Part shown: positions 2,398 to 20,903 of the stretch, one piece after another | Numbering within the stretch: position 1 is the first letter of the stretch | How the letters are laid out: each line of letters starts with the position of its first letter | The notes under the pieces: generated by a model | Database searches by the model: none | What the model was told of the DNA's origin: nothing | Seen by the model: only the letters and a program-made list of their open reading frames with translations | Sequence record: KM672662.1 | DNA from: Acinetobacter phage YMC13/03/R2096 | DNA: 64,000 bases | Reading direction: 5' to 3' (one strand) | Translations under genes and position numbers: made by a program

Positions 2398-2634
2398 TCA
2401 GATCTCTTCCAAGTCATCATAGCCTGTTAGGAGTTTCTCAGATGGCATTTCTTCCACAGATAACTCCCCACATTTTGAACATTCTAAGGTTATTACAGGC
2501 ATCTCTATCCCAAATAACTCATTGAATTCCTTACCACTTTCCTTAAAAATCAAAACACCAGAACCTTTACAGGACCCATTGGTGTGTTTTACAGGTTTAT
2601 CTTTCATAAACACCATCCATGAAAAAGAGGGCAC
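2398..2634 (-). CDS. small hypothetical protein
   Basis: 78-aa ORF. Confidence 0.4.
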   Translation of the reverse strand: MPSFSWMVFMKDKPVKHTNGSCKGSGVLIFKESGKEFNELFGIEMPVITLECSKCGELSVEEMPSEKLLTGYDDLEEI

Positions 2635-2652
2635 TAAGCCCTCAATTTTTAA

Positions 2653-3075
2653 TTAAATATCATACCGAACTCTAATTATCTCACGCTTATCAAGATCTGT
2701 CAAGATACCATAAGCATAACAATTATTCTGTATGTAATTGTCAACAGTTTGAATATTGAAGGATACCCACCTTGGTGACTTACCCTCACTAATTGTACAC
2801 AATAAGCAACTACCATTTCGTATGTGTAGAACAGTCAACATTCCTTCAATACTAACCATCCAGTGTGTAGCAGATTCTAAGTGCTCTTTACGACCCACAA
2901 ATGTTCGAACAACAGATGAATGGACACTTTTCATCTGAATGGCACCTAGAAAGCTGTTGTGCATGACTAATCTAGGTTTCCCACACTGGTATTGACCATT
3001 GTTATAGCTAGTTACACCCTTTAAAGCCATCATCCACCCCAAATTGTTATACAAACCATAAGGACAGTATAACAA
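2653..3075 (-). CDS. hypothetical protein
   Basis: 140-aa ORF. Confidence 0.45.
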   Translation of the reverse strand: MLYCPYGLYNNLGWMMALKGVTSYNNGQYQCGKPRLVMHNSFLGAIQMKSVHSSVVRTFVGRKEHLESATHWMVSIEGMLTVLHIRNGSCLLCTISEGKSPRWVSFNIQTVDNYIQNNCYAYGILTDLDKREIIRVRYDI

Positions 3076-3230
3076 ACAATTCCTGTACAGACAACAAGAG
3101 CAGTATATTTATTCAAAATAAAAACCCCCACATTAGTTGAAGTAGTTTAAACCCAACAAAGGCAAAACCTCCCATAATAACCGATATCACAAGCATACCT
3201 ATAATCATCACAACTATTTTCCAGTTCATG

Positions 3231-3464
3231 TTAATCCCCTTTAGTTGTACCTACATTCTTACCACATAAGAATGCATAAAGCATGACAGGTGCCCAGAAG
3301 AACATAACAAATATGATTATCAGTGATAAAGCAAATGAATTAACAGCTTGTTTTTTCTGTGCTCGATCCAACTTAATCATAACTGCCAGCTTACCAGCAT
3401 TAAAGCAACCGTACATCAGATATAAAGAAACTAAAAAACTTAACGTGTCAGTATTGATCATCAA
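3231..3464 (-). CDS. small membrane protein
   Basis: 77-aa ORF with two TM helices. Confidence 0.4.
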   Translation of the reverse strand: MMINTDTLSFLVSLYLMYGCFNAGKLAVMIKLDRAQKKQAVNSFALSLIIIFVMFFWAPVMLYAFLCGKNVGTTKGD

Positions 3465-4741: not shown

Positions 4742-5206
4742 TCAATGAAAAATAACTGCTACTAACCCTATTACCAACAGAACTGACATACATATTGCAA
4801 AAATCTGGAATGCATCAGTTCTACAATAGTATCCTAACACACCCTTCCATCCACGAGCAAGAGCAACATCAAAGTTTTTAACTTGAAACTTGCACTTGTA
4901 TGCATCATTTCTACGAACCGTACATGAACCATAGCTATAATCGATGTCGTAATCTTTGAGAGGTGAATTTCCAACATCTCGATAGAGATCCCTCCCATCA
5001 TAACTTTCAAAGTCAAAACGAACATTCATCAGGTCTTCAAACTCAATGACATGCTTAATGAACTGCTTTTTAAGGAAAGCTTTTTTATCCTCTTCATCTT
5101 GCTGGACCTTTTTCTCAGTAGCTACCTTTTGCATGTGTTCATGATACCACTCAGGTTTTTGTTCCTCTTCTTTCATCTTTTTCTTCACAAGATTCTTGAT
5201 CATCAA
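4742..5206 (-). CDS. hypothetical protein with C-terminal TM anchor
   Basis: 154-aa ORF with a hydrophobic C-terminus. Confidence 0.45.
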   Translation of the reverse strand: MMIKNLVKKKMKEEEQKPEWYHEHMQKVATEKKVQQDEEDKKAFLKKQFIKHVIEFEDLMNVRFDFESYDGRDLYRDVGNSPLKDYDIDYSYGSCTVRRNDAYKCKFQVKNFDVALARGWKGVLGYYCRTDAFQIFAICMSVLLVIGLVAVIFH

Positions 5207-15331: not shown

Positions 15332-15847
15332 ATGTCACAGGAACGTGAAGACTTAGAAGTTTCTTCTCAAGATACTCCAATTGGCTCTGAGTTAATGACT
15401 AATGCTCAGAAAAAACTTAAAGAAGCCCAAAAGAAAAGAGTATCTTTAGAAAAAATTATTGCTTTAACAGACGATGCTATGATTGACTCTATTCAGTACA
15501 TGCACCAAACAGTAAATAATCCTAAAGTAAGTCCAAATGCTCGTGTTGTTTGTGCGAATAACTTGGTTGCAATCAACCTTAAAGCTAAAAAACAACTTAC
15601 AGAAGAGAAAATGGCTGAACAAATGTACAGACACAAGGAACTTGTTATCCGTGCTGAAGCTATGAAGATTGCCCAATTGTCTGGTATAGGTCAAGAAGGT
15701 GGAGGATATGCTTCAGAAAGAACTGGGACTTTACAGTTAGAGTATGTAGAGAATCCAGAATATGCCGATGTTCCTACAGACCCAACATTAGCTGATGGAT
15801 ACGTTCCTGAATCTGGTGAAGGTCTGGGTGAGTATGAGATAAATTAA
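15332..15847 (+). CDS. hypothetical acidic protein
   Basis: 171-aa ORF. The RBS is AAGGAG. Confidence 0.5.
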   Translation: MSQEREDLEVSSQDTPIGSELMTNAQKKLKEAQKKRVSLEKIIALTDDAMIDSIQYMHQTVNNPKVSPNARVVCANNLVAINLKAKKQLTEEKMAEQMYRHKELVIRAEAMKIAQLSGIGQEGGGYASERTGTLQLEYVENPEYADVPTDPTLADGYVPESGEGLGEYEIN

Positions 15848-15930
15848 CCTTATTTTGTACAATAAATATACAACTAAGTAATATTTTTATGGTTTTTATG
15901 AAAAATTTATGAAAATATCAAATTTAGGTG

Positions 15931-15959
15931 TTGACAATGTATAAAAATCTGGTAATCTT
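15931..15959 (+). promoter_or_regulatory. promoter upstream of tRNA cluster (TTGACA, 17-nt spacer, TAATCT)
   Basis: Sequence inspection only. Confidence 0.4.
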
Positions 15960-16050
15960 AAATACATAGCGCTGATAAACATATTGATTATTTGTTTTTC
16001 ATAGTTATGTCCTTATCGGTAACCAAGAGTAAAAGCCCTCTTGGTTATTT

Positions 16051-16136
16051 GGGTGATGTTGGGGTGTTGGTCAACCCCATCAGACTGTAAATCTGACGTG
16101 AAAGCTGTCTAGGTTCGAATCCTAGATCACCCACCA
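16051..16136 (+). tRNA. tRNA-Tyr (GTA)
   Basis: Acceptor GGGTGAT/ATCACCC. Anticodon loop is ctGTAaa. Long variable arm. T-arm is GGTTCGAATCC. CCA is encoded. Confidence 0.8.
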
Positions 16137-16139
16137 AAT

Positions 16140-16214
16140 AGTACCTTAGTTCAGGGGTAGAACGCAGAACTGATAATTCTGAGGTCGATGGTTCGAAACC
16201 ATCAGGTACTACCA
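16140..16214 (+). tRNA. tRNA-Ile (GAT)
   Basis: Acceptor AGTACCT/AGGTACT pairs perfectly. Loop is ctGATaa. CCA is encoded. Confidence 0.8.
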
Positions 16215-16243
16215 ATTTAAAAGTTTTTAAAAGTTTATTCAGG

Positions 16244-16315
16244 TCTAGTGTAGCACAACGGTAGTGCAGCAGACTGTTAATCTGTTGGTTGTTGGTTCGA
16301 ATCCAGCCTCTAGAG
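16244..16315 (+). tRNA. tRNA-Asn (GTT)
   Basis: Loop ctGTTaa, D-stem GCAC/GTGC and G73. The acceptor has one mismatch and no CCA is encoded. Confidence 0.55.
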
Positions 16316-17057
16316 CCTGAGTAAATTAAGAATTACCCTTCGGGGTATGGGTCGTGTATAACCCTTAGATAAACTGCAAAACAGTATAAAGTCGTAACGG
16401 CAGTTATGGCGCAGAGTAAAAATCTGTCAAGTACACACTCAAGGTATCATACTTATGTGGCGTAGAGCCAATCGGTGTAAACCATTTAAGTATGGGGGTG
16501 TAATGCTCCTGAGTCGATAGGCAATAAGAGAACTTGAAGGTATCTAGCGAAGTTGATTGTCAAGTCAAAACGCTGTTTACCATTGTGAGAGGTATATAGA
16601 GTTTAACAGGTGGTGCTGAATCTCGTAGTCCTAAACCAAGTGGACAATATATGCTTGAAACATCGTGCATGGTAAAGCACATTAGGTAGTGTGGTATTGA
16701 TGGGTTCAAAAGATCTGTTAGCCACAGAGAAACCACTATCTATGCAATACAAATTTCATTTTAGGAAAAAATTAAATTCAAAAGTGTTTCTCACGTTGGC
16801 ATGAAAGGTGCTTACATAGTAATGGGTTGTCCATTGCACATTTAACCTGAAAGGTTATTTGTATTTTCATGAAAGGATTATGTTTGGTAGGCATACTAGC
16901 ATAGTTTGAGTATTGGGAGAGTAGTTCCAACGTCTAAGAGTGGTTAGCTATACTGACCAGCACTGATCACTACTATATAAAGTATAGTGGATAATGAGGG
17001 AAAAGATAATCCTCTCAAGGTGGTCATTTAAACGTGTAATCTCAGCGTTTTACTTGT

Positions 17058-17132
17058 GGCTCTGTAGCATAGTGGATTATGCGCCTCCCTGTCTAGGAGA
17101 AAAACGCCAGTTCGAGTCTGGTCAGAGTCGCC
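17058..17132 (+). tRNA. tRNA-Asp (GTC)
   Basis: Acceptor GGCTCTG/CAGAGTC. Loop is ctGTCta. G73. CCA is encoded. Confidence 0.75.
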
Positions 17133-17136
17133 AGTA

Positions 17137-17211
17137 TTGTCGTATAGTGTAATGGTTAGCACAGAAGACTTTGACTCTTCTAGTTTAGGTTCGAGTCCTA
17201 ATTCGACTACC
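17137..17211 (+). tRNA. tRNA-Gln (TTG)
   Basis: Anticodon stem GAAGA/TCTTC pairs perfectly. Loop is ctTTGac. T-arm is TTAGG-TTCGAGT-CCTAA. The acceptor has one mismatch. Confidence 0.6.
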
Positions 17212-17214
17212 AAA

Positions 17215-17290
17215 TGGGTCACTAGCACAATGGTAGTGCAGTTGCTTTGCAAGCATCAGGTTAAGGGTTCGAGTCCCTTGTGTATCCACC
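17215..17290 (+). tRNA. tRNA-like element, anticodon probably TGC (Ala). Acceptor pairing is poor.
   Basis: D-stem GCAC/GTGC, loop ttTGCaa, T-arm AAGGG-TTCGAGT-CCCTT and a CCA end. Only 5 of 7 acceptor base pairs could be formed by hand. Confidence 0.35.
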
Positions 17291-17292
17291 AA

Positions 17293-17368
17293 TATTCCAT
17301 TCGACTAGCGGTTAGGTCGCTTCCCTTTCAAGGAAGTAGCACGAGTTCGAATCTCGTATGGAATACCA
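17293..17368 (+). tRNA. tRNA-Glu (TTC)
   Basis: Acceptor ATTCCAT/ATGGAAT pairs perfectly. Stem CTTCC/GGAAG. Loop ctTTCaa. CCA is encoded. Confidence 0.8.
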
Positions 17369-17370
17369 AT

Positions 17371-17447
17371 AGGACGTTAGCTCAGTTGGTTAGAGCAAGA
17401 GCCTTTTAAGTTCGAGGTCATAGGTTCAAATCCTATACGTCCTACCA
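17371..17447 (+). tRNA. tRNA-Lys (TTT)
   Basis: Acceptor AGGACGT/ACGTCCT pairs perfectly. D-arm is GCTCAGTTGGTTAGAGC. Loop ctTTTaa. CCA is encoded. Confidence 0.8.
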
Positions 17448-17452
17448 ACAAT

Positions 17453-17526
17453 GGTGACTTTGGTGTAATGGTTTGCATCACTCCCTGTGAAGGAGAAGGT
17501 CAGGGTTCAAATCCCGAAGTCACACC
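17453..17526 (+). tRNA. tRNA-His (GTG) with G-1
   Basis: Loop ctGTGaa. Acceptor GTGACTT/AAGTCAC is preceded by an extra G. CCA is encoded. Confidence 0.65.
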
Positions 17527-18225
17527 AAGAATTTTAAGAATTTCAAACGAGTAGAGGTACAGTCCTGAAAGTTTGAAAGTGGGGCGACACCTGCCTGAAG
17601 TAGTAGCTAATAATGGCCTGTTAGTGAATCTAAGTGGTGTGACTTAACTGACTTGGAGAGAAAGGTCGGGGCAGAGCACAAGTAGCTGAGATGGATTAGC
17701 GCTACCCTGAAGAGGTTGAGAGGTTGGATCGTTACCAACATTGTGCACCAAATTTTTAAAAGAAGAATTATTTTAGGATTACCATAACCTAAAGGCTCGA
17801 AGGGGCGGTCTGCAACATCGTTGTTGGTGAGTTGAAGTCTCACATGGTAATCCAAAGTGATTTTTATAGAGGTTAAACCAGATAGGTTCTGGGACACCCT
17901 GCTAAGGTGATCGTGTTAGAAATAGCATTCGGATCGAGACCGATGGCCTCTGCCAAATTTGTTGTGCGCTCCACAGGTTGATCCTGTTACGGTTATCCTC
18001 AAGACCAGACCGCAACAAAGCAACATCAATGGCTTGTCTAAAGTAACGCTGTTGATGGGGCAAATGCAGACACCGATTCGCCTCTGACCTAGTTAAGCAC
18101 ACTAATCGGTTTTTTCTTAGGGCTATTGGACAGGTAATTACCCCTCCTTTAGTTACGACAAGATATCTTCGTGGCTCGCTACCTTGAAGGCATCCCAGTT
18201 AGGGTTCTGGTTAAAAACTCACTAC

Positions 18226-18300
18226 AGTCCCTTAGCTCAATCGGGAGAGCAACACTCTTACAAGGTGAAGGTAGTAGGTTCGAAACCTACAGGGACTACC
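18226..18300 (+). tRNA. tRNA-Val (TAC)
   Basis: Acceptor AGTCCCT/AGGGACT pairs perfectly. Loop ctTACaa. T-arm is GTAGG-TTCGAAA-CCTAC. CCA is encoded. Confidence 0.75.
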
Positions 18301-18301
18301 A

Positions 18302-18391
18302 AGGTGGGTAGCGTCAAGGTGACAAAGCGGGCTTGAACCCCGTGCCAATTGTGATGAGCAGTTGAGAGTTCGATTCTTTTACCCATCGCCA
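18302..18391 (+). tRNA. tRNA-Ser (TGA), class II
   Basis: Acceptor GGTGGGT/ACCCATC. Stem GCGGG/CCCGT. Loop ctTGAac. Long variable arm. G73 and CCA. Confidence 0.6.
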
Positions 18392-18392
18392 A

Positions 18393-18466
18393 GCGTTTAT
18401 AGTGTAGTGGTAACACCCTGTACTTCCAATTCAGTATCTTCGGTTCGAATCCGAATAGACGCTCCA
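18393..18466 (+). tRNA. tRNA-Gly (TCC)
   Basis: Acceptor GCGTTTA/TAGACGC. Loop ctTCCaa. T-arm is TTCGG-TTCGAAT-CCGAA. U73 and CCA. Confidence 0.75.
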
Positions 18467-18477
18467 GATTATGTTTA

Positions 18478-18600
18478 TGGACACTTCCTAAGGTTCTTTC
18501 TACAGGTTCGAAACTGTTTTAAGAATTGCTGGTGCTAGGTTTAGCGTCAAGAATCATTCGAAGGGTTCTTGGGGTGGTGAGTTCGATTCTCACAGTGTTC
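18478..18600 (+). ncRNA. aberrant 123-nt tRNA-like element
   Basis: GGACACT pairs with AGTGTTC on 7 of 7 positions, enclosing about 110 nt. Inside are two T-arm-like hairpins (ACAGG-TTCGAAA-CTGT and GTGAG-TTCGATT-CTCAC) and a 6-bp stem CAAGAA/TTCTTG. There is no canonical anticodon arm and no CCA. Confidence 0.3.
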
Positions 18601-18619
18601 CCCCTATTTTAAAGTTTAT

Positions 18620-18696
18620 CTCTGTGTAGCTCAGTTTGGTAGAGCACTCGCTTTGGGAGTGAGGGGTCGTAAGTTCAATTCTTACTACAGAGACCA
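18620..18696 (+). tRNA. tRNA-Pro (TGG)
   Basis: Acceptor CTCTGTG/TACAGAG. Stem CTCGC/GTGAG. Loop ttTGGga. T-arm is GTAAG-TTCAATT-CTTAC. CCA is encoded. Confidence 0.7.
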
Positions 18697-18783
18697 GTTA
18701 TGAAGTGTTTGTACAGCTATCAGCTCACCGTTTAAAGGATACGGACAAGTCGGCTCGACTAAAGACTCACTTCATATGTTTTT

Positions 18784-18860
18784 GGGTAGTTGAAGGGAAT
18801 GGCATACCTTTCACGCTTAGAACGTGAAGTTTCTGAGTTCGAGTCTCAGACTACCTACCA
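18784..18860 (+). tRNA. class-I tRNA with anticodon TAG, presumably Leu (CUA/CUG)
   Basis: Acceptor GGGTAGT/ACTACCT. Stem TCACG/CGTGA pairs perfectly. Loop ctTAGaa. Variable loop is 5 nt. A73 and CCA. Confidence 0.6.
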
Positions 18861-18866
18861 AATTCT

Positions 18867-18942
18867 GGGGATATAGCCCAACGGCAGAGGCAAGAGGTTT
18901 AAACCCTCTCAAGTTTCAGTTCGAATCTGAATATCCCTACCA
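18867..18942 (+). tRNA. class-I tRNA with anticodon TAA, presumably Leu (UUA/UUG)
   Basis: Acceptor GGGGATA/TATCCCT. Stem AGAGG/CCTCT pairs perfectly. Loop ttTAAac. Variable loop is 5 nt. T-arm is TTCAG-TTCGAAT-CTGAA. A73 and CCA. Confidence 0.6.
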
Positions 18943-18957
18943 GTTTAGGAGTGCTAC

Positions 18958-19239
18958 ATGGAAGTATTACTTGTTAGTGATTGTAGATGCCAAGAGCGTT
19001 ATGACTTTGCAGATATTGTAAAGGATGCTCAAGAACAAGGTATCAAAATTAAGTACACATTAGTTCCTAAGAAGATATCCTATGAAGATAGAACTTACAC
19101 ATTTGTTAATGTTGAAGATCTCACTAAGGATAAAAGTTGTATTGTTGGTAAGAAGTTTGATGATGTCTATTTGACACCAGAAGCTAAAGATGCTATACCT
19201 TTAGGGTTGCTATCATTTATACTTACAAGAATACGTTAA
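18958..19239 (+). CDS. small hypothetical protein embedded in tRNA cluster
   Basis: 93-aa ORF. An AGGAG site lies 8 nt upstream of the ATG. Confidence 0.5.
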   Translation: MEVLLVSDCRCQERYDFADIVKDAQEQGIKIKYTLVPKKISYEDRTYTFVNVEDLTKDKSCIVGKKFDDVYLTPEAKDAIPLGLLSFILTRIR

Positions 19240-19246
19240 GTTTTAA

Positions 19247-19334
19247 GTCCCTACACCCTCCAAGAGCCTTCTAAGCTCTCGACATTAAATAGGGGGAAGG
19301 TAGTCAGAGTGTTCGATTCACTGTGGGGACTCCA
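19247..19334 (+). tRNA. atypical tRNA-like element, anticodon TCT (Arg?). It has a rudimentary D-arm and a 27-nt variable region.
   Basis: Acceptor GTCCCTA/TGGGGAC and stem AGAGC/GCTCT pair perfectly. Loop ctTCTaa. T-arm is GAGTG-TTCGATT-CACTG. CCA is encoded. Confidence 0.4.
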
Positions 19335-19335
19335 A

Positions 19336-19411
19336 GCCGAATTAGCTCAGTTGGTAGAGCAGCGCACTTGTAATGCGAAGGTCGTAGACTCGGATTCTAC
19401 ATTCGGCACCA
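19336..19411 (+). tRNA. tRNA-Thr (TGT)
   Basis: Acceptor GCCGAAT/ATTCGGC pairs perfectly. D-arm is GCTCAGTTGGTAGAGC. Loop ctTGTaa. T-loop is CTCGGAT. CCA is encoded. Confidence 0.75.
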
Positions 19412-19417
19412 TATTTA

Positions 19418-19507
19418 GGTCGTGTAGCTTAAAGAAAGCAAGAGGATTTATAAACCTTTTCACTAGATAAGTGCTTGATGTGGGGGCAGTACCCACCACG
19501 ACTACCA
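19418..19507 (+). tRNA. class-II tRNA-like element with a 9-nt anticodon loop (AUUUAUAAA); identity unresolved
   Basis: Acceptor GGTCGTG/CACGACT. D-stem GCTT/AAGC. Stem AGAGG/CCTTT encloses the 9-nt loop. Long variable arm. T-arm is GTGGG-GGCAGTA-CCCAC. A73 and CCA. Confidence 0.4.
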
Positions 19508-19509
19508 AT

Positions 19510-19579
19510 AAGTCCCCCTCTGGGAGGGAAGAGGTCTCCAAAACCACTTAGCTGTGTTCGATTCACAGGGGATTTGCCA
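19510..19579 (+). tRNA. tRNA-Trp (CCA), short 70-nt form
   Basis: Acceptor AAGTCCC/GGGATTT. Loop ctCCAaa. T-arm is CTGTG-TTCGATT-CACAG. G73 and CCA. The D-arm is compact. Confidence 0.55.
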
Positions 19580-19729
19580 AATTAGATTAAGATGTTGGTG
19601 CGTGACAACCTTAATCGGCATGATTTTAGTTTATGTCGATGTGATAAACATGGCTAGATAGATATGTCGATAAAAACTAGAAATTAAAACACGTAGTATT
19701 GAAATGTTAAAAATAATTAAACAAAACAC

Positions 19730-19758
19730 TTGACAAATAGATTTTTAGTGTTATATAT
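19730..19758 (+). promoter_or_regulatory. promoter (TTGACA, 16-17-nt spacer, TATATA/TATAAT) upstream of tRNA-Met and thioredoxin
   Basis: Near-consensus -35 and -10 elements. Confidence 0.5.
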
Positions 19759-19783
19759 AATATATAAGCAATTAAGTTTTCAT

Positions 19784-19858
19784 AGCGAGGTAGTGTAACG
19801 GTTTGCACAGGGGACTCATAATCCTCTGGTTTGGGTTCGAATCCCAACTTCGCTTCCA
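19784..19858 (+). tRNA. tRNA-Met/fMet or Ile2 (CAT)
   Basis: Acceptor AGCGAGG/CTTCGCT. Stem GGGGA/TCCTC. Loop ctCATaa. T-arm is TTGGG-TTCGAAT-CCCAA. CCA is encoded. Confidence 0.7.
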
Positions 19859-19878
19859 GTTTCGGAGGATCAATTATC

Positions 19879-20193
19879 GTGTATTTAGAACTAGTAGAAA
19901 ATGAAGCATTTAGCCAGATTGGTACAAACCGAAAGGTTATCTTCAAATTTGGTGCAAAATGGTGCTCTGGTTGTAAAGCGATAACTCCAGTCCTCAAAAA
20001 ATTATCTGAACAAAATCCTGATATTGTCTTTGTAGATATCGATATTGAGCAATCGAAAGGACTAGCTGAAAGATTTAATGTTCAGACCTTACCAACTTTC
20101 ATATCTTTCCAAGAGTCCTTAAAGAAGGATACCATTGTAGGTACTCCTAAAATTACTCAGTTGAAAGAAATGATCACAAATATGCAAAAATAA
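19879..20193 (+). CDS. trx: thioredoxin
   Basis: Active site WCSGCK within a Trx fold. GTG start at 19879 lies 8 nt after GGAGGA. The track ORF starts earlier and overlaps the tRNA. Confidence 0.75.
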   Translation: MYLELVENEAFSQIGTNRKVIFKFGAKWCSGCKAITPVLKKLSEQNPDIVFVDIDIEQSKGLAERFNVQTLPTFISFQESLKKDTIVGTPKITQLKEMITNMQK

Positions 20194-20215
20194 TAAAGAT
20201 AAGCAAACACGTTTC

Positions 20216-20240
20216 TAAAACCTTTAGTTTAAGGTTTTTC
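20216..20240 (+). terminator. rho-independent terminator after trx
   Basis: Hairpin AAACCTTT-agttt-AAGGTTT followed by TTTCTCC. Confidence 0.45.
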
Positions 20241-20408
20241 TCCAACCCCACTAACCAAATAACTGTTATGGATGACACAAGTCAATAATAGGGAATAATT
20301 AAGGTTAGTGGGTTTTCTTATTTATAATGACATTTCGTGTAGATTTAAGAGGTGGTGCTTACTTGTCCTAGGCATCACCCCTTAAGTTATCAACATAGAG
20401 GACAAGCT

Positions 20409-20903
20409 ATGGAAGAAATTTGGAAGCCTGTTGAAGGTTTTGGTGGCTATGAAGTTAGTGATTTGGGTCGTGTACGTAAGGTTGACGGAACTATTGTTAA
20501 TCTATTCAACCATCCGCAAGGATACCTAAAAGTAGCCCTTAAGGTTGCTGGCCAAAAGGTTAGTAAGAAGTACGTGCATAGGCTTGTAGCTGCTGCATTT
20601 ATACCTAACCCAGACAACCTTCCTTATGTAAATCATAAGAATGGCAAGCAGTGGTGTAATGAGGTTGATAACCTTGAGTGGATATCCTCTAAAGATAACC
20701 ATACACATGCTCGTGAGACTGGTCTTATTGACTATTACAAGTCACACCGAGTAGTTTCTGTCGAGGATGTACGATACATACGTAAGCATATAAAACCTTA
20801 CGATAAAGAATTCGGTAATGGTGCTATTGCAAAGCGATTGGGCTTAAGCCGAGACCAAGTTACTGACATTGCCCTGTACCGGAATTACAAAGACGTGATA
20901 TAG
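20409..20903 (+). CDS. free-standing HNH homing endonuclease
   Basis: EVSDLGRVR..., a NUMOD4-like N-terminus, and YVNHKNGKQWCNEVDNLEWISSKDNHTHA (HNH_3). ATG at 20409 follows AGAGGA. It sits immediately upstream of the intron-containing terminase gene. Confidence 0.7.
   Translation: MEEIWKPVEGFGGYEVSDLGRVRKVDGTIVNLFNHPQGYLKVALKVAGQKVSKKYVHRLVAAAFIPNPDNLPYVNHKNGKQWCNEVDNLEWISSKDNHTHARETGLIDYYKSHRVVSVEDVRYIRKHIKPYDKEFGNGAIAKRLGLSRDQVTDIALYRNYKDVI

Follow-up and report, generated by a model that had tools for sequence, protein, structure and literature searches.

The window analysed here is a stretch of 64,000 nucleotides of Acinetobacter phage YMC13/03/R2096 (KM672662.1). It carries 17 plus-strand tRNA genes within 16051-19858 (ARAGORN). 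The segment 16318-17057 exactly fills the gap between two of them, tRNA-Asn and tRNA-Asp, where an earlier note on this DNA, made from the letters alone, had placed an ORF-free, stem-rich segment. As we discuss below, the segment belongs to the GOLLD family of large phage RNAs. The main features are the following:

16244-16317, plus strand: tRNA-Asn(GTT), directly upstream of GOLLD (ARAGORN; Rfam, 66.3 bits)
16318-17057, plus strand: full GOLLD RNA unit, about 740 nt (tRNA borders, Rfam 3' domain and nhmmer profile), the exact ends being those that tRNA processing would leave
16318-16681, plus strand: GOLLD 5' domain, 364 nt, outside the Rfam model, with 50 pairs in 12 helices
16682-17048, plus strand: GOLLD 3' domain, RF02032, model positions 1-416, untruncated
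17058-17133, plus strand: tRNA-Asp(GTC), starting 9 nt past the end of the GOLLD model (ARAGORN and Rfam)

Most of what had been said of the segment from its letters holds. None of its ORFs reaches 60 aa, the longest being a minus-strand ORF of 58 aa at 16560-16736. The segment contains no tRNA either: the earlier reader had been unable to fold one by hand, ARAGORN finds none in 16318-17057, and the Rfam tRNA model (RF00005) gives none there even at E up to 1. The strings quoted as typical of structured RNA are all present, GGTAGTGTGGTATTGATGGGTTCAAAAG at 16685-16712, GGCGCAGAG at 16408-16416 and GGCGTAGAGCC at 16460-16470. The description of the composition stands in part. The GC content is balanced (38.1%, against 37.5% for the whole window), and the shift towards G+T is real but weak (52.8% vs 49.4%). 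The segment has 23.1% G and 15.0% C; since a positive GC skew of like size spans the adjoining tRNA genes and the upstream coding DNA, composition alone is not diagnostic. The plus strand folds at -205.2 kcal/mol (z -3.0 vs shuffles) and the minus strand at -154.5 kcal/mol (z -2.3 vs shuffles).

A GOLLD RNA with two structured domains

A scan of Rfam with Infernal, which the earlier note had proposed as a check, gives a full-length GOLLD match far over the gathering score. The match of RF02032 to 16682-17048 on the plus strand scores 217.6 bits (E 2.5e-61; gathering score 150), and it is the sole non-tRNA match in a permissive Rfam scan of 15500-20500. The family name does not occur in that note; its reading of the segment as a structured non-coding RNA is borne out by this match and by the covariation described below. 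Homologues are found in other phages. In a BLAST search of phage genomes, the 742-nt query was matched whole in five Acinetobacter phages, with an identity of 99.1% in Ab15, 97.6-98.4% in Herod, Bestia and AM24, and 69.9% in vB_AciJM_313. The Rfam model finds the same match in Ab15 (218.9 bits) and in vB_AciJM_313 (207.2 bits). Eleven metagenomic or viral relatives carry GOLLD at 202-263 bits, with all representatives over the Rfam threshold. We therefore identify the segment as a GOLLD RNA with high confidence.

GOLLD RNAs have been known since 2009, the family reportedly going back to Weinberg et al. in that year. The structure of the GOLLD cage was published in 2025 (PMC12286853), and the present locus is part of the same work: the GOLLD Stockholm alignment of Kretsch et al. 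(Nature 2025; PMC12286853) lists both NC_027332.1:16682-17048 and KM672662.1:16682-17048, and AM24, Herod, Bestia and P577 are likewise rows of it. The first aligned block of the published row, the one block compared, is identical to window 16682-16718 (37 nt). The finding is thus real and already known. As a discovery it adds little, the family, the cage structure and the locus all having been published.

The likeness to the family is extensive. As in other GOLLD RNAs, the 3' domain model is matched over its full length, the linker is variable and the 5' domain is structured; the length of about 0.7-0.8 kb and the position inside a tRNA array are likewise shared. Like other members, the segment is phage-encoded and tRNA-adjacent, lying in the tRNA-Asn/tRNA-Asp gap of an Acinetobacter phage genome. 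We find no difference that affects membership. The published alignment delimits only the 3' domain at this locus. The other large phage RNA to be considered is ROOL, presumably Rfam RF03087, whose sequence and fold are unrelated to those of the GOLLD segment and which gives no match at E up to 1 in the Rfam scan of 15500-20500. ROOL likewise lies near tRNA islands and forms an RNA-only cage (PMC12286853).

Because Rfam models only the conserved 3' domain, 16318-16681 was tested separately. Full-length relatives were collected by pattern scans of viral and metagenomic contigs and filtered with nhmmer. Two elements of the 5' domain are useful for orientation:

16334-16347, plus strand: 5'-terminal hairpin with a UUCG tetraloop, UACCC-UUCG-GGGUA (sequence and alignment)
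16464-16477, plus strand: conserved 5'-domain motif AGAGCCAATCGGTG, exact over 14 nt

A scan of viral contigs for the bare 14-mer AGAGCCAATCGGTG gives at least 119 loci, mostly by chance, and 22 of these are GOLLD after the nhmmer filter. In the 22 loci, most of them on independent viral contigs, the distance from the motif down to the GOLLD 3' end is 556-680 nt, and the 11 representative loci exceed the Rfam GOLLD threshold. The 5' motif combined with the AGGTGGTGC pattern returns zero matches in metagenomes; a looser metagenome pattern yields seven loci, three of them useful, and its match in genome_contigs proved not to be GOLLD. The relatives fall into the lineages L002/L046 (L002 being vB_AciJM_313), L093, L122/L123, L126, L127/L128 and L057. 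The all-clade MAFFT alignment of the 5' domain is unreliable, and the covariation test is for this reason limited to the 11 sequences that align well.

Both domains have homologues in env-38, one of the GOLLD RNAs whose cage has been solved. A whole-unit nhmmer profile built from window-like sequences aligns to env-38 over profile positions 34-732 (E 5.5e-31), and since it spans both domains of env-38, both domains are homologous. RNAalifold predicts 151 pairs in the 11-sequence alignment, 101 of which show at least one compensatory double change, so that the comparative analysis named in the earlier note as a further check also supports a structured RNA. In the 5' half, 93.6% of the cells are paired, compared with 77.0 +/- 1.1% in shuffles, and none of 500 shuffles reaches this value. 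Both partners are changed in 32 pairs of this half; sliding the partners by 1-3 columns lowers this number to 6-14. The 3' half has 14 helices (RNAalifold, 11 sequences, alignment columns 498-918), with most pairs changed on both sides. The UUCG hairpin near the 5' end is kept in relatives with other stems: UCUC/GGGA in L002, CUAC/GUAG in L122, CUCC/GGAG in L126 and ACUC/GAGU in L057. A terminal helix in the minimum free energy fold, GAGUAAA 16319-16325 with UUUACUU 17050-17056, is absent from the relatives and was treated as due to chance. The 5' domain is delimited neither by the Rfam model nor by the published alignment of the locus; its delimitation and its support by covariation are new here.

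These patterns bear on two other accounts of the segment. One is that small minus-strand proteins are encoded here, following the GenBank annotation of Ab15, where two genes (CDS0071 and CDS0072) overlap the homologous region:

L001 4245-4421 and 4463-4615, minus strand, corresponding to window 16560-16736 and 16778-16930: Ab15 CDS annotated as 'hypothetical protein' (GenBank)

Matching ORFs of 58 and 50 aa do exist in the window. In relatives of about 70% identity, however, the region of the 58-aa ORF changes in length by non-multiples of 3 and has several stops in nearly every frame, and, of the eight relatives other than the window/Ab15 pair, six have additional stops in the frame of the 50-aa ORF (16778-16930). 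The variation tracks RNA base-pairing instead, and four other GenBank records annotate nothing here. We regard a protein-coding function as exceedingly improbable, and the two hypothetical genes of Ab15, judged by these alignments, are almost certainly spurious. The five related GenBank records matching the segment all leave GOLLD RNA itself unannotated, and one of them places two spurious protein genes on it.

The second account is that the segment consists of decayed tRNA genes or is a non-functional spacer left by rearrangement of the tRNA array. The array is plastic, with a tRNA order that varies among relatives and an HNH endonuclease in other gaps, and in other parts of the cluster several real tRNAs escape ARAGORN. 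Decay would have to be reconciled with the lack of any tRNA signal in 16318-17057 at E up to 1, and with the fact that the whole 740 nt is about 70% identical, with compensatory substitutions, across phages in which the flanking tRNAs differ. The covariation and the family match refute this account, whose probability we consider negligible.

Inter-chain contact motifs and missing hairpins

Solved GOLLD cages are a 14-mer of env-38 (PMC12286853) and a 12-mer of Streptococcus agalactiae (Sag) GOLLD (PMC12990946). The GOLLD cage consists of RNA only, is 380 Å in diameter and forms at concentrations down to 12.5 nM RNA (PMC12286853). We mapped onto the window the bridges between chains of the env-38 14-mer that are given in Supplementary Table 2 of Kretsch et al. 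(PMC12286853). The env-38 sequence taken from the supplement PDF has 815 nt rather than 833, about 18 nt having been lost, and its 3' end is garbled relative to the reverse primer. As this text is incomplete, published residue numbers were mapped by sequence context and local offset; bridges B1 and B10 lie outside the confident mapping. The elements of the window that correspond to contacts, or lie next to them, are:

16553-16568, plus strand: hairpin P10 with loop UUGUCAAG at 16557-16564, one partner of the L10-L12 kissing loop (RNAalifold helix)
16665-16680, plus strand: hairpin P12 with loop AUGGUAAA at 16669-16676, the other partner of the L10-L12 kissing loop
16682-16743, plus strand: first hairpin of the 3' domain, with a conserved CAAAA loop at 16707-16711 (Rfam, RNAalifold)
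16744-16792, plus strand: A/U-rich variable linker J13/15, aligned to the low-conservation linker of the Rfam model
16838-16862, plus strand: hairpin P20 with loop UGAAA at 16848-16852, partner of UUCA in J13/15 (bridge B7 type)
16879-16903, plus strand: the only P21 hairpin, whose GGCA tetraloop (16890-16893) corresponds to env-38 L21b (self-pairing kissing loop B9)
17033-17047, plus strand: terminal hairpin with the conserved loop GUAAUCUCA (L27 region), which agrees letter for letter with the Rfam consensus GUAaUCUCA

The L10 and L12 loops are complementary over 4-7 pairs in nine of nine lineages, and the type of pairing differs by clade (UUAUCA/UGAUAA in L002, UUCCC/GGGAA in L128 and UAUCCCU/AGGGAUA in env-38). 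This kissing loop is the counterpart of bridge B4 in env-38 and of the L10-L12' kissing loop in Sag GOLLD. Residues A447 and A448 of env-38, which make the A-minor bridge B6, map to the CAAAA loop by sequence context. The J13/15 linker varies in length and sequence among the relatives; within it, UUCA at 16777-16780 can pair with the L20 loop. The four proposed linker-L20 pairs are formed in 72.7% of cells, compared with 53.8% in shuffles, and the three central pairs are compensatory, with GAA/UUC in the window and ACAA/UUGU in L002. Position 16848 is T in the window and C in Ab15 (UGAAA vs CGAAA), the T adding a fourth pair (U-A) to the putative linker-L20 interaction. The GGCA tetraloop is present in 10 of the 11 aligned sequences, and G675:C676 of env-38 (B9) falls within it. 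All relatives have the L27 core ATCTCA unchanged, apart from L093 (GTCTCA) and the garbled env-38 transcript. By these alignments, the B4, B6, B7 and B9 motifs are retained, with covariation for B4 and B7.

Two hairpins of env-38 are missing. The P21a hairpin (ACAC-CGCAAG-GTGT, with G656:C657 of bridge B8 in loop L21a) has no counterpart in the alignment of the window clade, the gap falling between 16878 and 16879. Likewise, the env-38 hairpin GGGG-AAA-CCCC has no counterpart in the aligned sequences of this clade; we take it as P11a because its loop contains the GAAA given for L11a (PMC12286853). In env-38, the two half-shells are joined by three contacts, of which B8 is one (PMC12286853). 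With B8/L21a and P11a missing, neither assembly nor stoichiometry is to be assumed.

Both domains of the window RNA are alignable with env-38 (833 nt, PDB 9MEE, a 14-mer with D7 symmetry), with which it shares L10/L12 (B4), CAAAA (B6), J13/15-L20 (B7), GGCA (B9) and the L27 loop. It is about 90 nt shorter than env-38 and lacks P21a and P11a; its 5' UUCG hairpin is absent from the env-38 construct. Sag GOLLD (700 nt, PDB 9L0R, a 12-mer), compared here by its description in a 2026 review, is compact, with a single P21 and no P11a-c, and its 5' cap is held by the L10-L12' kissing loop (PMC12990946). The P21 that it retains may differ from that of the window RNA, since by the same description Sag GOLLD is without P21b (PMC12990946). 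Solved GOLLDs that differ in these same peripheral hairpins still form cages, with different stoichiometry (PMC12990946). The Acinetobacter-phage clade is therefore a compact variant whose cage may differ in stoichiometry from that of env-38. For such a variant of 740 nt, with a 12-mer in Sag GOLLD and a 14-mer in env-38 as precedents, the oligomeric state is not predictable from sequence. That this clade lacks P21a and P11a, yet keeps the other contact motifs that can be mapped, is new here. As a natural compact variant, the window RNA suits experiments on which contacts set cage size.

The missing hairpins are also an argument for a third alternative, in which the segment is a genuine GOLLD homologue that acts as a monomer, as a protein-bound RNA or as an element for processing or stability of the tRNA transcript, rather than as a cage. 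Besides the absence of P21a/L21a (B8) and P11a, this alternative draws on the tight embedding between tRNAs, which would fit a role in transcript processing as well. Against it, the loops through which chains touch in two independent cryo-EM structures show both conservation and covariation here, which is hard to reconcile with a monomer. Sag GOLLD, moreover, has a single P21 and no P11a-c, and still forms a 12-mer (as described in PMC12990946). A homologue that forms no cage is in our view quite unlikely. We hold with moderate confidence, on the strength of these motifs, that the window RNA would assemble into a cage.

Probable release from the tRNA transcript and possible role

The arrangement of the locus suggests how the RNA may be produced. 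GOLLD would be transcribed within a polycistronic tRNA transcript. A cut by RNase P at 17057/17058, the 5' end of tRNA-Asp, would generate its 3' end, and 3' processing of tRNA-Asn near 16317 its 5' end. By analogy with the solved cages, the released RNA would then self-assemble without protein into a closed homo-oligomeric cage of two half-shells. Family membership, secondary structure conserved in both halves and retained sequences of inter-chain contacts are observed at this locus; taken together with them, a plus-strand GOLLD gene of about 740 nt that is co-transcribed with tRNAs, released by their processing and self-assembling into a homo-oligomeric cage is very probably the correct reading.

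Release from a polycistronic tRNA precursor is suggested by the recurrence of the tRNA-abutting arrangement, in which tRNAs adjoin GOLLD in several independent lineages. The distance from the end of the GOLLD model to the next tRNA is 9 nt in the window, Ab15, L126, L031 and L095, and 15 nt in L122; tRNAs directly precede GOLLD in L093, L095 and L126. One promoter candidate, read by eye, lies upstream of the cluster:

15931-15958, plus strand: candidate promoter of the tRNA/GOLLD operon, with TTGACA as a perfect -35 hexamer, 13 nt, and TGgTAATCT as an extended -10

A consensus scan for promoters and terminators gave no signal above shuffled expectation; the candidate is not listed by it because its -10 hexamer matches the consensus at 3/6 positions. 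In one viral contig (L043), a minus-strand tRNA-Gly(TCC) at 2939-3014 lies inside the GOLLD linker (GOLLD at about 2588-3455), an arrangement that has been described for other GOLLDs (PMC12990946). No tRNA lies inside the linker of the window RNA (16744-16792).

What is known of GOLLD biology comes from other systems. GOLLD expression climbs during phage-induced lysis (PMC12286853). By the summary in PMC7567579, the L. brevis prophage GOLLD accumulates in lytic growth and is reported to be dispensable for phage production, so that any benefit of GOLLD may be conditional. Mycobacterial copies lie in horizontally transferred tRNA clusters. The role proposed for GOLLD is to encapsulate or sequester tRNAs, ribosomes or other macromolecules in lytic growth (PMC12286853; PMC12990946). 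Our confidence in any specific biological role for the window GOLLD is low.

One such role follows from the compact-variant reading when it is extended. If GOLLD were excised exactly by the enzymes of tRNA maturation, its production would be coupled to the supply of phage tRNAs, and this coupling would point to a tRNA-centred role. The compact, single-P21, P11a-less GOLLD, whose cage may be other than a 14-mer, might then shelter phage tRNAs or act as a decoy for host defences that target tRNAs. This combination of properties is unlikely as a whole. Were it true, a lytic phage of a culturable pathogen would be a tractable system for finding the function of GOLLD. With a GOLLD that is strictly phage-borne and a host, Acinetobacter baumannii, that can be cultured, these phages lend themselves to deletion and infection experiments on the family.

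Other features of the tRNA arrays

The cluster of the window holds further tRNA genes or candidates beside those listed by ARAGORN. The plus-strand sequence 17676-17747 is a tRNA that ARAGORN missed (Rfam, 38.6 bits), and its homologue is annotated as tRNA-Phe in Bestia, Mithridates, AM24 and Herod. Neither ARAGORN nor Rfam lists a likely tRNA-Cys (anticodon GCA) at about 17776-17853 on the plus strand. In an alignment with the annotated tRNA-Cys of Acinetobacter phage Ab_121, its T arm is identical, and its acceptor and anticodon stems show compensatory changes. At 19418-19504 (plus strand), Rfam gives a tRNA match of 32.3 bits (cut-off 29) that ARAGORN does not report. In the second ORF-poor gap of the cluster, about 135 nt on the plus strand (17824-17958) have no Rfam family match. 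With an identity of about 70%, they resemble a stretch in 76 Pseudomonas phages, which are Pakpunavirus where the taxonomy was checked. The counterpart in PAK_P4 overlaps the end of a tRNA-Lys and unannotated DNA beyond it.

Relatives of the locus show features of their own. In vB_AciJM_313 (L002), a plus-strand tRNA-like sequence at about 4755-4840, read from the alignment, directly follows GOLLD; it has a GTT anticodon loop and a GGTTCGATTCC T arm, and is annotated neither by ARAGORN nor in the record. The GOLLD-containing array of this phage also has a suppressor-type tRNA at 2959-3032 (anticodon CTA, reading UAG), and a second suppressor-type tRNA (anticodon TTA, reading UAA) starts 9 nt after GOLLD in L095 (4198-4275). 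Two other GOLLD contigs carry a group I intron (L046 1020-1236, 85.1 bits) and a phage-borne tmRNA (L057 11704-12037, 99.3 bits).
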